A DNA stretch of 55,173 nt from a virus (lineage: Duplodnaviria; Caudoviricetes). The stretch's first letter is position 1. Every line of letters starts with the position of its first letter. The position numbers and the translations under genes were made by a program. A model generated the notes under the pieces. The model was not told where the DNA came from. It saw only the letters and a program-made list of their open reading frames with translations, and did no database searches. Below are positions 26,832 through 55,173 of this stretch, one piece after another. The DNA lies in the IMG/VR virus record IMGVR_UViG_3300048837_000354, positions 1 through 55,173 of that record. One strand, written 5' to 3'.

Positions 26832-28964
26832 TCAATCCTTTTTGTAGAAGTCGCTGCGGAAGCCGTGCGCCGACAGCGGGCAACCTTCGGCCCACGGGGG
26901 TACGACAGACATGCACGCTTCAAGCGCCTGGGTCGACAGAGAGTCGTCGTCGATGTCGTCTAGCGAGATGATTTCGTCGTGGACGTGCCCGATGATGTTG
27001 TAGCCGGCCTCGCGCGCCTTGAGCATGCCGTACACCAGGATATCGCGAGCAATGGCCTGCACCAGGTTCTCGATGATCTTGCCGCCGTGGGTGTCCATGC
27101 GCACCCACTTCTTCGAGGTCTGATGAACGCCCTCGTAGCTGATCTCCCACTTCTCCTGTTCGTCCCAGATCGGCTCGCCGGTCTTGTCGTCGACCGCCTG
27201 GATAAACTGGCCGTACTCGTTCTCGCGCGGGTGGCCGTGCTCGTCTATCTCCCACACCGGCCAAAGCTTCACGATCTTCTTGACCGCCGGACGGCAGTAG
27301 AACAGGTGGCGACCGGACGGAAGACGGATGCGCAGGAACGGCGGCTTGATGTCGAAGAGGAACATACCGACACGACGCGGCTCCTTGTCGCGGATGCAGT
27401 CTCGCATCGCGTTCTCAAGGTCGTACCACATCTGCTTCACTTCGGGAGAAAGGTTGCGGTAGATAGCGACCGCCTTGTGAGAAGCTTCGCGCGACAGCTT
27501 GACGCCCATGCTCTCCGCGTAGGCCCAAAGGCCCGTCTTCTTCTGGTCCGGATACTCGCCGACCAGATCGCCGCCGCCGAGACGATAGCCGCAGCCCAGC
27601 GCGGCGGGCTTGCACTCGTTGCGCTCGTCCTTGGTGATCTCGTCATATGGCTTGACCAGGTAGTGAACGCCGAACGCCTTGTACGGATCGAGCTTCTTCT
27701 CCAACACGTCAAGCCAGAACTTGCACCCGGTGATCCACGCAATCACGCACAGTTCGATAGCCGAGAGGTCGCAGACGTTCAAGACCTTGCCGGCCGGCGC
27801 GATGAACGCGGAGCGGATCGACGACACGAGCACGTCTAGCACGTTGCCGAACAGGAACTCCAACGTCTCGAAGTCCCGGTCGCGGATCAACTGCCGCACG
27901 TAGCCCAGGTGCGGCTCCACGCGCTTCACGGGGCGCGGGAGATTCTGCAACTGCACAACCCGGCCCGCCCAGCGTCCAGTGCGCCCAGCGCCGCAGAACT
28001 GCATCGTGTAGCGCAGGATGCCGTCGTCCGCGACAGCACGCAGCATGGCGTCGAACTTCTTGAGGCTGGTCTTCGTCGACGCGGTGCGCAGCGCGAGGAA
28101 GTCCTTGGCCTCCTTGGTGATCTTGTCGCCGAAGTCAGCGAGCGCCAGCTTCACGCGGTCCTTGCGCAGGCTCTCGAACGGGTAGCCGCGCGCTGCAAGC
28201 CACGGTTGTGCCTGCTGCGTTGAGTTCGGATTCTTGAGACCGGAAACCTTGATCATCTCGGCCTTGAACATCGCGGCCCACTGCTTCGCCATTGCGATAG
28301 CGCCGTGAACCAACTCAAGGTCTACCGGATAGCCTTCGTCGTTGATGTCCTGATCGAACGCCCAAAGCTCGAACACTTCACCGAAGTTCGGAAAGAACTG
28401 CCGCAGCACGCGGAACACCTTGTCTTCGGCGACCACGTCCTGTCGGCCGTAGCCGCAGAACTCGGCCCACTCCGCCGGGTGGCTATCCCAGTCGTTGAAC
28501 TCGCGCGGATTCTTCGCGGTGACGTGGTTCTTCGGTCGAGGCTTGCAGAAGAGATTGATCAGCGCCTTGCCGCGCGGGTCCTTCTGGTAGTCCTTGTGCA
28601 GGCGCAGTGCATCGCGCGTCAACTGGTCCAGGTTGCCAGGCAAAGCCAGCGAGAAGGCCATCGCCATTGTGCAGATGAAACGCGACGCCGGAAGATCAAT
28701 CTTTAGCACGTGCTTGAGAATCAGACGCTCGAACGCCGCGTTGTGCGCGACAATCTTTATGTTGGGGTCGAGCAGCCACGCGCGCAGCTTCGCCGGCATG
28801 TCCGGGCGAAGGTGCGGATACCAGACCAGCGGTTCACCGTCGTCGAGCTTGACCCAGAGCATCAACACGCGCGTCGATGGGTCGCGCGCATACACGTCGA
28901 CGCCACACATTTTCAGGTCGACCTTGGACCGCGTCTCGAAGTCGGTGTGCAGGAGTTGAGTCAC
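26832..28964 (-). CDS. DNA polymerase family A
   Basis: DFET exonuclease motif, AHNAAFER, RTGRW, QLQNLPR, DLSAIE and HVHDE. Confidence 0.93.
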   Translation of the reverse strand: MTQLLHTDFETRSKVDLKMCGVDVYARDPSTRVLMLWVKLDDGEPLVWYPHLRPDMPAKLRAWLLDPNIKIVAHNAAFERLILKHVLKIDLPASRFICTMAMAFSLALPGNLDQLTRDALRLHKDYQKDPRGKALINLFCKPRPKNHVTAKNPREFNDWDSHPAEWAEFCGYGRQDVVAEDKVFRVLRQFFPNFGEVFELWAFDQDINDEGYPVDLELVHGAIAMAKQWAAMFKAEMIKVSGLKNPNSTQQAQPWLAARGYPFESLRKDRVKLALADFGDKITKEAKDFLALRTASTKTSLKKFDAMLRAVADDGILRYTMQFCGAGRTGRWAGRVVQLQNLPRPVKRVEPHLGYVRQLIRDRDFETLEFLFGNVLDVLVSSIRSAFIAPAGKVLNVCDLSAIELCVIAWITGCKFWLDVLEKKLDPYKAFGVHYLVKPYDEITKDERNECKPAALGCGYRLGGGDLVGEYPDQKKTGLWAYAESMGVKLSREASHKAVAIYRNLSPEVKQMWYDLENAMRDCIRDKEPRRVGMFLFDIKPPFLRIRLPSGRHLFYCRPAVKKIVKLWPVWEIDEHGHPRENEYGQFIQAVDDKTGEPIWDEQEKWEISYEGVHQTSKKWVRMDTHGGKIIENLVQAIARDILVYGMLKAREAGYNIIGHVHDEIISLDDIDDDSLSTQALEACMSVVPPWAEGCPLSAHGFRSDFYKKD

Positions 28965-29281
28965 GGGCGTACGTCCATCCAGGCTTTGATCACTTCGGCG
29001 AAGAGCGGCGGGACGATGGCATTACCGTAGGCGCGCAGTCTTCCCACTCGGGAGGGAACCCCATCAGCCAGCAGACGAACTCCGAGGCCAACGCGCCGGG
29101 CTTTTCCGTCGTGGCCGAGAATCCAGCGGGAGTCATCCCACATTCCGCGAGCAATTCCGGAACCGTGACTATCTGCGTCGCCAATGTCCACTGGCCGCGC
29201 GGATGCAGCCTCTCCGCTTCTTTCACTTGTGCCGCTACGCTCGCTGCACTCACCGACGCATTGTGAGTCGGAGTCGCCCAA
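28961..29281 (-). CDS. Methyltransferase C-terminal part (motif X) in another frame
   Basis: DGVPSRVGRLRAYGNAIVP motif; stop overlaps the DNA polymerase start. Confidence 0.7.
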   Translation of the reverse strand: MGDSDSQCVGECSERSGTSERSGEAASARPVDIGDADSHGSGIARGMWDDSRWILGHDGKARRVGLGVRLLADGVPSRVGRLRAYGNAIVPPLFAEVIKAWMDVRP

Positions 29282-29901
29282 AGTGCCGCGTAGACCTGTC
29301 GCGGCAACTGATCCACTCTGGTCCGCCCTGCTTCTCTCTCTCCCGAGACATGCCCGGCGTGTCTTTGTAGTCCCGCGCCGACGCCGTCACCCACAACGCA
29401 CTTTCCAGCGGCGAAGGCGATGCGGTCGCGACGGTGAGGCGCGTTGACGGCACAAGCTGGTAGTACGGCCGACCCGCAGGCGTAGCCGATGCCTTCCAGG
29501 TCAGCAAACACTCGATCGAGCCAATTTTTTCTAATCGCTGCTGCAACCTGCTCTCCCATGCAAACGGCGGGTCGGCAAGCGGCGATAAGGCGGAAGTAGT
29601 GTGGCCATAGGTCCCGTTCGTCGTCGGTGCCGAGTTGCTTGCCAGCGACGCTATACGGCTGGCACGGCGCACTGCCCGTCCAGAGTTCGCGACCATCGGG
29701 CCAGCCGGCGAGACGTGCAGCAAGACTCCACCCAGCAATGCCAGCGAAGAAGTGGCACTGTGTGAAGAACTCAAGGTCTTCTGGTTGAACTTCCGTGATG
29801 CTGCGTTCATCCACTTCTCCGTCAGGAATGTGACCGGCTTTGATCAAGTTGCGAATCCACTGCGCGGCGTACGGCTCAAATTCGTTGTAGTAGTTCGACA
29901 T
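28990..29901 (-). CDS. C5 cytosine DNA methyltransferase: motifs I-VIII fused to the beta-type motif IX region (frameshifted state)
   Basis: FFAGIAG, PCQPYS, EQV and HRRDR, then switches to RVDQLPRQ...WATPT...EFVCWLMGFP. Confidence 0.85.
   Translation of the reverse strand: MSNYYNEFEPYAAQWIRNLIKAGHIPDGEVDERSITEVQPEDLEFFTQCHFFAGIAGWSLAARLAGWPDGRELWTGSAPCQPYSVAGKQLGTDDERDLWPHYFRLIAACRPAVCMGEQVAAAIRKNWLDRVFADLEGIGYACGSAVLPACAVNAPHRRDRIAFAAGKCVVGDGVGAGLQRHAGHVSGEREAGRTRVDQLPRQVYAALWATPTHNASVSAASVAAQVKEAERLHPRGQWTLATQIVTVPELLAECGMTPAGFSATTEKPGALASEFVCWLMGFPPEWEDCAPTVMPSSRRSSPK
29250..29810 (-). CDS. Overlapping alternative-frame (beta-type) methyltransferase subunit, N-terminal part
   Basis: ESRLQQRL...LTWKASATPAGRP...RDYKD, recalled as typical of alternative-frame partners of phage C5 MTases; start uncertain. 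Confidence 0.55.
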   Translation of the reverse strand: MNAASRKFNQKTLSSSHSATSSLALLGGVLLHVSPAGPMVANSGRAVRRASRIASLASNSAPTTNGTYGHTTSALSPLADPPFAWESRLQQRLEKIGSIECLLTWKASATPAGRPYYQLVPSTRLTVATASPSPLESALWVTASARDYKDTPGMSREREKQGGPEWISCRDRSTRHFGRLRLTMRR

Positions 29902-29919: not shown

Positions 29920-29951
29920 AAAAACCCCGGCTACCTTGCGATAGCCGGGGT
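29920..29951 (-). terminator. Rho-independent terminator upstream of the MTase
   Basis: ACCCCGGCTA-loop-TAGCCGGGGT followed by T-run on the minus strand. Confidence 0.8.
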
Positions 29952-30044: not shown

Positions 30045-30632
30045 TCAGTTGTCCCAGTCCGAGTCGTCGCCCGCGCCTTCCTTGAACTCGGGCTCGACGG
30101 TCTCGAAGCCTTCGGCCGTGTCCGGACGCTCGGTGCCGAAGCGCGTGCCCTCGCCGACGTACTGCACGGCCAGGAGGTTCGCGTTGACCTTCTTGCCCCA
30201 GGAGTTGTCCTGCTTCCACGGCTTGATCTTGATGTTGACGATGCAGCCGGCGTAGAGGATGCCGTCCTTGGGGTTGATCGGCGACATATCACGGTTGAAA
30301 ACGTCGGGCTTGTTGTCGACGTTCTCGGACGCCGAGATCACCCAGTGGCCTTCCTGCTCGGCCTTGCCGCTGTCGTTGCCGTTGCGCAGGAACAGGTTGG
30401 CCGTGCCGACCTTCGCCTTGAAGTATTCCATCTGCAGTTCGCTCAGACGGCCCTTGAGGTACTTGATCGCCTCGGCGTGCGTGGTCTCGGGCAACAGGCC
30501 CTTGCACGAATACTTCAACTTTTCCTTCTCCGGGTTCTTCGCCCACGGCTCGAAGACGTGCGGGTAGGAGAGGACGACGTTCTTGACGATGATGCTGCCG
30601 TCTTCGCAGACGGTGATGTTCTTGATGGACAT
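30045..30632 (-). CDS. DUF2815 family ssDNA-binding protein
   Basis: LSYPHVFEP, LRNGND, YAGC and LLAVQY motifs; acidic tail. Confidence 0.85.
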   Translation of the reverse strand: MSIKNITVCEDGSIIVKNVVLSYPHVFEPWAKNPEKEKLKYSCKGLLPETTHAEAIKYLKGRLSELQMEYFKAKVGTANLFLRNGNDSGKAEQEGHWVISASENVDNKPDVFNRDMSPINPKDGILYAGCIVNIKIKPWKQDNSWGKKVNANLLAVQYVGEGTRFGTERPDTAEGFETVEPEFKEGAGDDSDWDN

Positions 30633-54946: not shown

Positions 54947-55173
54947 TCAGTTGGTGTCCAGCCAGAGGTCGCCGACGGCGGGACTGCCGGGCGGCGTTGT
55001 TCCTACGTGAATCATCGTACCGTCCGCGCCTGCGTCGCCTTGATCGCCTTTGAGCGACAAAAGCCACGCCGCCTCACTGCCGACGAAGCCGTTGTTGACC
55101 GCGATCTGGTAGGCGCTGAGCCCATCCACGCCGTCCTCGCCGTCCGCGCCTGCGTCGCCTTGATCGCCTTTGA
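54947..55173 (-). CDS. 3' part of collagen-repeat structural protein
   Basis: KGDQGDAGADG twice; ends PAVGDLWLDTN. Confidence 0.8.
   Translation of the reverse strand, partial: KGDQGDAGADGEDGVDGLSAYQIAVNNGFVGSEAAWLLSLKGDQGDAGADGTMIHVGTTPPGSPAVGDLWLDTN

Follow-up and report, generated by a model that had tools for sequence, protein, structure and literature searches.

The window analyzed in this work is the complete record of a virus of the Caudoviricetes (IMG/VR IMGVR_UViG_3300048837_000354), with 55,173 bp, terminal repeats and a G+C content of 62.7%. Its minus strand carries a putative orphan C5-cytosine DNA methyltransferase locus, whose coding sequence is spread over overlapping frames and contains a (GA)5 repeat. 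The question raised by this locus is whether the repeat acts as a switch. The original prediction, made from the sequence alone, had described a dual-frame methyltransferase switched by the repeat, and had left three explanations side by side: slipped-strand phase variation, a re-partitioned enzyme, and an assembly error or inactivating indel. From the comparison of the window with its relatives, the reading in two frames is right and applies more widely than had been proposed, and the supposed switch is most likely a lesion.

Reading frames of the locus and the (GA)5 tract

Three open reading frames (ORFs) with methyltransferase-like sequence, overlapping in three frames of the minus strand, were found as had been described: 28990..29901 (303 amino acids (aa), ATG start), 29250..29810 (186 aa, ATG) and 28961..29281 (106 aa, TTG). 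The relatives of this locus carry two nearly co-extensive genes, named here alpha, with methyltransferase motifs I-VIII as well as X, and beta, of 230-350 codons in the +1 frame. Both frames are also present in the window, where beta lies inside alpha and the two are swapped at the repeat. The parts of the locus are the following:

29343..29901, minus strand: alpha N-part, in frame with the ATG at 29901; motifs I (FFAGIAG), IV (PCQPYS), VI (GEQV) and VIII (HRRDR), and then the beginning of the variable linker
29808..29820, minus strand: likely beta start; GGAG at 29820-29817, a spacer of 6 nucleotides (nt) and ATG at 29810-29808, inside the alpha codons P-D-G-E-V-D-E
29333..29810, minus strand: beta N-part, +1 with respect to alpha; poorly conserved N-terminus, SRLQQRL helix, LTWK..TPAGR hairpin core and first WxT module (LWVTASARDYKDTPGMSRERE)
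29333..29342, minus strand: (GA)5 tract, site of the 2-nt surplus with respect to relatives and of the swap in both frames
29250..29332, minus strand: out-of-frame tail of the beta N-part ORF, about 27 codons with the stop at 29252-29250, matched by neither profile
28990..29332, minus strand: beta C-part, in the frame of the alpha ATG and therefore fused to the alpha N-part; second WxTP module (LWATPT), tail EFVCWLMGFPPEWEDCAPTVMPSS and stop at 28992-28990
28961..29335, minus strand: alpha C-part, read in the third frame; motif X within the conserved block W..GHDGKARRVG..ADGVPSRVGRLRAYGNAIVP, and stop TGA at 28963-28961

The first 165 residues, approximately, of the 303-aa ORF are C5 methyltransferase-like, since the alpha N-part matched phrog_363 with an E-value of 2.4e-62. 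PF00145 matched residues 73-164 of the same ORF (E 4.8e-17; 61.4 bits for a cut-off of 22 bits), which contains the catalytic motif IV (PCQ) through motif VIII characteristic of that family. The alpha C-part also matched phrog_363 (1.5e-10), and the beta N-part and beta C-part matched phrog_1008 (6.6e-13) and phrog_31772 (5.8e-12), respectively. In PHROGs, the alpha entry is phrog_363 and the beta entry is phrog_1008.

The tract itself (GAGAGAGAGA, 29342->29333 on the minus strand) was found at the expected position and only once in the window. By itself it is not remarkable: 0.19 occurrences are expected by chance in the window, and 17 of 100 shuffled sequences had at least one. It is, nonetheless, a simple repeat within a reading frame, in which the number of units sets the frame. 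The breakpoints were mapped with alpha and beta profiles built from 76 intact relatives. Positions 1-175 of the alpha profile fell in the frame of the ATG at 29901 (29901->29377) and positions 198-310 in that of the TTG-started ORF (29335->28967). The beta profile also changed frame, with positions 17-178 in the 29810 frame (29837->29328) and positions 206-302 in the 29901 frame (29331->28996). Both breaks are at the (GA)5 tract. The distance between two conserved anchors is 32 nt in the window and 30 nt in Cyanophage Cy-LDV1, and because of this 2-nt surplus the removal of one GA unit would restore both frames, as the original prediction had proposed. Beyond the surplus, the profile mapping showed both frames undamaged.

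The profile mapping also confirmed the state that had been described for the window, in which the N-terminal half of alpha is joined to the C-terminal half of beta and motif X is orphaned. The 2-nt surplus severs motif X (GNAIVP, in 28961..29281) from the chain that carries motifs I-VIII. The earliest possible start for the alpha C-part is a TTG (29281-29279) without a Shine-Dalgarno motif, and the 303-aa "methyltransferase" that a gene caller reports is a chimera of two different proteins. In the mechanism that we propose, a change from (GA)4 to (GA)5 would have added 2 nt to the window genome and shifted both frames at one point. The alpha N-part would then read on into the beta C-part as the 303-aa ORF, the beta N-part would end after a nonsense tail of 27 codons, and the alpha C-part with motif X would be left without a usable start.

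The tract site in relatives

If the tract were a phase-variation switch, (GA)n would toggle between four and five units by slipped-strand mispairing and turn methylation on and off, or alternate two forms of the enzyme. The tract lies exactly where one unit alters both frames, its downstream sequence is free of secondary damage, and bacteria are known to switch methyltransferase genes by means of repeats. The repeats of phasevarion methyltransferases resemble that of the window in being simple, in lying within the reading frame and in setting the frame by the number of units. However, those repeats are long, conserved and polymorphic among strains, whereas the tract of the window has five units, which are few for a contingency locus, is not rarer than expected by chance, and is absent from all relatives examined.

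The relatives were obtained by scanning with the alpha alignment. In viral contigs, 594 of 600 candidate stretches were relatives, and among genome contigs 561 of 600; the best 80 of each set were kept, the latter coming from many phyla. Excluding three interrupted loci and three duplicates, 74 distinct viral loci were left. The count of GA units in related genomes, which had been suggested as a check, showed that none of these 74 loci has the repeat at the tract site and that the nearest relative across it breaks the repeat. A dinucleotide repeat of at least five units was present anywhere in only one of the 74 (L090, a (GA)5 near the 3' end), and no repeat is present at the site in L001 and L005-L009, the relatives that were aligned there. 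The conservation in relatives expected of a phase-variable repeat was thus not found.

Closer sequences were also sought. The contig of L010, with 84.5% DNA identity, ends at window position 29552, short of the tract; a pattern search with the tract flanks and a variable gap gave no further IMG/VR record, and a single-protein scan of genome contigs gave no closer relative. Three read runs, sharing 0.05-0.08 of their words with the window, were compared, and a contig covering the tract was obtained from only one of them (X2, and not X1 or X3). This X2 contig (1465 nt, depth 12.9) is about 90% identical to the window, spans 28955-29876 and is the nearest relative across the tract. Single bases are omitted at 29325 and at 29332, and positions 29333 and 29339 are substituted, so that the contig is devoid of the repeat and, in net terms, shorter by 2 nt. 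It also has 73-81 extra letters, approximately, near 29273-29280, the number being 81, a multiple of three, if the 8-nt overlap of its two pieces is counted. The omissions and the repeat-breaking substitutions place the nearest known relative in the normal frame and without the repeat.

The swapped state was likewise absent elsewhere: a profile split over two frames inside one gene was found in none of 165 other loci, so the arrangement of the window is unique among 166. Three loci flagged in that scan (L046, L101 and L174) were explained by a second gene copy. Two double-coded copies lie close together in L046 (1504-2503 and 3602-3989) and in L174 (1201-1977 and 2679-3135), and the second copy of L046 was matched by both profiles.

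Broken copies of this gene family do occur, as evidenced by nonsense alleles of alpha. In L079 a TAG (1672-1674) replaces the Trp of motif I, and L082 has an in-frame TGA (1630-1632); both lie early in alpha and leave beta open over 334 and 304 codons, respectively. These are two independent alleles, the L079 sequence being identical in L081, a second IMG/VR record.

Since the repeat is not conserved, the nearest relative is 2 nt shorter and none of the 165 loci is swapped, we consider it likely that the extra GA is either a one-off insertion by replication slippage or an error of assembly or sequencing, and that it leaves inactive an enzyme belonging to a family of two-protein methyltransferases. 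Regarding the second of these origins, the large genes of the window are unbroken (e.g., ORFs of 1238, 914 and 710 aa); therefore a generally error-ridden assembly is unlikely, and a single error could still be present. Of the three explanations offered originally, the assembly error or inactivating indel is thus the one favored, and the other two lose ground. Phase variation in particular is unlikely, in view of the unconserved tract, the substitutions in the closest relative and the lack of any swapped locus.

A re-partitioned enzyme would be an active methyltransferase in three pieces: the fused alpha N-part and beta C-part, the truncated beta N-part, and an alpha C-part started at TTG. The four conserved segments all remain in the sequence with no other damage, and natural two-piece enzymes (M.AquI and M.EcoHK31I) and fragment complementation are described in the accounts of PMC3404938 and PMC2836561. 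However, the alpha C-part has neither an ATG nor a Shine-Dalgarno motif near its first start, the TTG at 29281, which sits well within the other ORFs. In addition, the arrangement has no counterpart among the loci scanned, and alpha residues 244-296 form much of the predicted interface with beta described below. We regard this explanation as very unlikely.

A third possibility is programmed recoding, in which ribosome or RNA polymerase would slip on GGGAGAGAGAGAAG and normal alpha and beta would still be made from (GA)5. A corrective slip at the tract would indeed restore both proteins, and "saviour" frameshifting is a known concept. Nevertheless, the site is conserved in no relative, it has none of the known features of a slippery heptamer or a long homopolymer, and one shift per ribosome could rescue a single protein at a time, alpha or beta, all of which makes such recoding extremely improbable.

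Some points speak against an inactivating lesion. Except for the 2 nt, the downstream frames are intact, which fits a very recent lesion or an error and equally a reversible switch. Dinucleotide repeats are inherently prone to slippage. C5 methyltransferases tolerate splitting into fragments, according to the account in PMC3404938, and the three pieces could in principle still assemble, were the alpha C-part translated. With these points taken into account, a slippage insertion or an error continues to be the explanation that we prefer, and the enzyme of the window would have lost its activity, judging from its sequence. Probably, then, the phage does not methylate its DNA by means of this enzyme.

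Double coding across the family

The two-frame layout of the locus had been compared in the original prediction with M.EcoHK31I, and this comparison holds for the whole family. Both ORFs were present in 10 of 10 loci spanning the gene (phage K1H, phiEc3, Cyanophage Cy-LDV1, L005 and metagenome loci), three of the 13 loci examined being cut by contig ends. In 77 of the 80 viral loci and 78 of the 80 genome loci the +1 frame was open across 70% or more of alpha, and in none of the 160 was the +2 frame; the median open fractions in the viral loci were 0.89 and 0.21, respectively. The three viral exceptions are the already mentioned L079, L081 and L082, with early in-frame alpha stops and intact beta; the two genome-contig exceptions (0.65 and 0.58) are long alpha ORFs. 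Motif X was in frame with alpha in 75 of the 80 viral loci by pattern, and also in L024 and L097 by eye.

The beta frame has its own conserved features (..SRLRQRL..GS..LTWK..TPxGR.., WPTPxAxDxK modules of the form WxTP..D.K..L..QV, and the tail NPxFxxWLMGxPxEWDxCA), with 0-6 WxTP modules per protein by pattern count. A tblastn search with a beta sequence matched 276 phage records. Among the 40 matches listed, 33 lay under a feature named methylase or methyltransferase, two under "hypothetical protein", two under "putative metabolic enzyme" and three in unannotated sequence, and in the four records that were checked (epsilon15, Tadhana, RcIroh and a Krischvirus) beta matched the +1 frame of the annotated gene. 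In K1H, alpha and beta are annotated as "C-specific methylase" and "Mte8-like protein", and in Paenibacillus phage Tadhana the label "DNA-cytosine methyltransferase" is given to both. "Mte8" is an annotation label only, and no paper explaining it was found. Annotators have so far merely called both ORFs, and a full-text literature search, with REBASE outside its scope, gave no description of the two-frame arrangement. In a systematic review of viral gene overlaps, methyltransferases appear only in the tymovirus replicase example, its figure and its table (PMC8227390).

These data allow a family mechanism to be proposed. Alpha would be the catalytic large domain, with motifs I-VIII, an unconserved and probably disordered linker, and a conserved C-terminal block containing motif X. 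Beta would be translated in the +1 frame from its own ribosome-binding site, about 79-115 nt inside alpha, and would end about 30-40 nt before the alpha stop. It would serve as the target-recognition (small-domain) subunit, and alpha and beta would act as a heterodimer. We infer the translation of beta, the formation of the heterodimer and the role of beta from the observations that follow.

It should be considered, first of all, whether beta is a separate protein. The openness of the +1 frame could be a by-product of alpha composition, or the segments could be joined into one chain by frameshifting. In GC-rich genes the +1 frame is often open, and when the codons of the 74 distinct viral loci were shuffled synonymously (200 shuffles per locus) the open +1 length had a median of 138.8 codons, for 283.5 in the observed sequences. 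The observed length was attained by 450 of 14,800 shuffles, a count to be read with the kinship of the loci in mind, as they are not independent trials. By locus, no shuffle of the 200 attained it in 37 of the 74 and at most 10 did in 63, but more than 10 did in the remaining 11. However, the arrangement persists at 45% and 42% G+C, in Tadhana and in a Krischvirus (T4-like), and the +2 frame, as said, is nowhere long.

The pattern of constraint also bears on this point. Conservation of alpha is high in codons 1-160 and 241-280, with codons 161-240 unconserved (column conservation of 0.08-0.33). The conservation of beta peaks at the WPTP modules, where it exceeds that of alpha, and at NPAF..WLMG (0.82), so that beta-specific motifs are conserved where alpha is not. 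The entropy of alpha third codon positions is 1.41-1.53 bits in codons 1-90, the ordinary pattern of a single gene, 1.24 bits in codons 91-160 and 0.96 bits in codons 241-280, and this drop indicates a second constraint at the 3' end. There, LAxGxPxRVGRLRxYGNAIVP of alpha and WLMGxPxEWDxCAxTAMPSS of beta share bases with an offset of one position. In the middle region, aligned by beta, the third position of beta was the most variable (1.56, versus 1.34 and 1.30), a weak signal from a noisy alignment.

With respect to the beta start, many loci have a candidate ATG 79, 91, 100 or 109 nt past the alpha start (range 79-115), placed 6-9 nt after GGAG or AGGAG and built into the conserved alpha codons G-E-V-D-E-R-S-I-x-D-V. 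In K1H this is GGAG, 6 nt and ATG, and in epsilon15 AAGGAG, 8 nt and ATG. Such an internal Shine-Dalgarno-like motif with an ATG also argues for a separate protein.

For the prediction of the complex, both chains were taken from L008, which is the closest relative with an intact gene (alpha, 297 aa; beta, 261 aa). The interaction prediction score from aligned errors (ipSAE) was 0.90 in three of three runs, and the best of three controls scored 0.00. A score of 0.90 was reached by 58 of 80 solved complexes and by 2 of 110 mismatched pairs, counts that give only a rough calibration here because the prediction used our own 76-row alignments. The predicted local distance difference test (pLDDT) of the partners was 54-64, and at least 54% of the contacts agreed between runs. 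The predicted interface sets residues 84-125 (helix and hairpin) and 225-251 (tail) of beta against residues 141-158 and 244-296 of alpha, the latter including the motif X helices. The DNA stretches coding for beta 84-125 and for alpha 141-158 overlap, each being read in its own frame, and because the interface uses both readings, which a single frameshifted chain could not provide, such a chain is unlikely. The model supports, and does not show, the binding of alpha to beta.

Alpha of L008 alone had a pLDDT of 77, with residues 171-240 low and without secondary structure. It has a methyltransferase fold, a result obtained on this relative and not on the window's own gene: it aligned with M.HhaI over 171 residues (Z of 16.2, root-mean-square deviation of 2.3 A). 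This number of residues is about the size of the large domain of a C5 methyltransferase. The models are thus consistent with alpha being the catalytic domain and beta the DNA-reading subunit. In the N-terminal part of this alpha, residues 1-45 (29767-29901 in the window) form a conserved extension before motif I, YYNEIDxxAAxWLRxLI..G.IP.G.VDERSI. Only about 25 residues separate motif I from motif IV, and the structural alignment with M.HhaI begins at HhaI residue 34. As a speculation, the extension might replace the usual elements of motifs II-III.

Relatives of beta were searched for without success in Pfam, NCBIfam and PDB. Beta gave no match to PF00145 at E-values up to 1 and only a weak one to phrog_116 (E 0.21), and in Atlas it was found only in unnamed, mostly viral clusters. 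A wide structural search with the beta model, a poor one, gave nothing above a Z of 3.1. A single-chain form was also sought. Among the 120 best beta-like proteins (125-399 aa), none had PF00145 and one had PF05869, and none of 18 beta-like proteins of 458-680 aa had a Pfam domain. The one with a precomputed PF05869 (Dam-type N6-adenine methyltransferase) is P0089, of 381 aa, which may be a fusion or an ORF running into a neighboring gene.

Several of the results count against beta as a subunit in its own right. Its first 74 codons, approximately, have no constraint at the protein level (entropy of 1.46 at beta codon position 2), it folds poorly alone (pLDDT of 59.9), and it lacks known relatives in the databases just mentioned. 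Moreover, the complex score is the model's own confidence and may draw on knowledge of monomeric C5 methyltransferases. Given the persistence in phages of lower G+C content, the constraint at the 3' end and an interface that needs both readings of the same DNA, we consider it unlikely that beta is not a separate protein. On balance we lean towards regarding PHROG 363 and PHROG 1008 as widespread obligate-heterodimer C5 methyltransferases of phages and prophages, whose subunits share one stretch of 0.8-1.2 kb, each in a frame of its own, with beta as a modular target-recognition subunit made from an internal start.

Known systems, genomic surroundings and significance

Nearly all the C5 methyltransferases characterized are monomers, and M.AquI and M.EcoHK31I are given as the exceptions in the accounts of PMC3404938 and PMC2836561. 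As described there, the beta chain of M.EcoHK31I, with motif IX, lies wholly inside alpha in another frame, alpha has motifs I-VIII, motif X and the recognition domain, and both chains are needed (PMC2836561, PMC3404938). The present family is similar in layout, with beta nested in an alpha that carries motifs I-VIII and X. It differs in that the beta of M.EcoHK31I is small and carries motif IX only, whereas the family beta, of 230-350 aa, covers about 85-90% of alpha and has a helix-hairpin core and repeated WxTP modules. M.EcoHK31I beta has 61 aa. The tail NPxFxxWLMGxPxEW of the family beta may resemble motif IX. In addition, M.EcoHK31I has its recognition domain on alpha, whereas in the present family the region of alpha between motifs VIII and X is unconserved (0.08-0.33) and predicted to be without secondary structure, and the conserved modules are in the beta frame. 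Finally, the family is phage- or prophage-borne and very widespread, in many phyla.

M.AquI is described as a naturally occurring heterodimer in which the split falls in the variable region (PMC3404938). Separate genes without overlap encode the two subunits of M.AquI, and its beta has motifs IX and X, whereas the present family keeps motif X on alpha and its genes overlap almost fully. With M.HhaI and the monomeric PF00145 enzymes, the family alpha shares the catalytic fold and motifs (profile match to M.HhaI with an E-value of 4.7e-18 over motifs IV-VIII). However, only 171 of the 327 HhaI residues were matched, and the family alpha lacks a conserved variable or target-recognition region of its own, has motifs I and IV separated by only about 25 residues, and carries the 45-residue conserved N-terminal extension. 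The number of WxTP modules may set or multiply the specificity of beta, by analogy with tandem recognition domains, which are present in multispecific methyltransferases of Bacillus phages.

The gene that follows the methyltransferase in the window is:

26832..28964, minus strand: family-A DNA polymerase (710 aa), downstream, its identity read from the sequence and from synteny with annotated relatives

Its GTG start (28964-28962) overlaps the TGA stop of the alpha frame as GTGA (28961-28964). The chimeric frame from 29901 ends 27 nt earlier than the normal stop of alpha, and this could weaken translational coupling to the polymerase. On the other side, between the methyltransferase start and a single-strand-binding-like gene (30045..30632), there is a terminator-like GC-rich hairpin of 12 bp (29951->29924, minus strand) followed by TTTTCGTTTT. 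The hairpin at 29924-29951 suggests that methyltransferase and polymerase begin a new transcription unit. A 9-nt tandem unit (TCCACGCCG, 2.9 copies) was also observed at 79-104 and 55125-55150, within the direct terminal repeats.

Provided that both alpha and beta are made and that they bind, many of the phage proteins annotated as "DNA methyltransferases" would be half an enzyme, with the sequence-reading half hidden in the +1 frame. This would bear on the prediction of phage methylation specificities and on the escape from host restriction. The family also bears on the annotation practice of penalizing overlapping genes and on the evolution of long overlaps, as LAxGxPxRVGRL and WLMGxPxEWDxC come from the same nucleotides one base apart. 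In length and in breadth of distribution, the overlap would then be near the top among the known same-strand gene overlaps of DNA viruses. Double coding makes such genes unusually fragile, because one indel harms both subunits at once, and a single indel could swap the halves of two proteins, as in the window.

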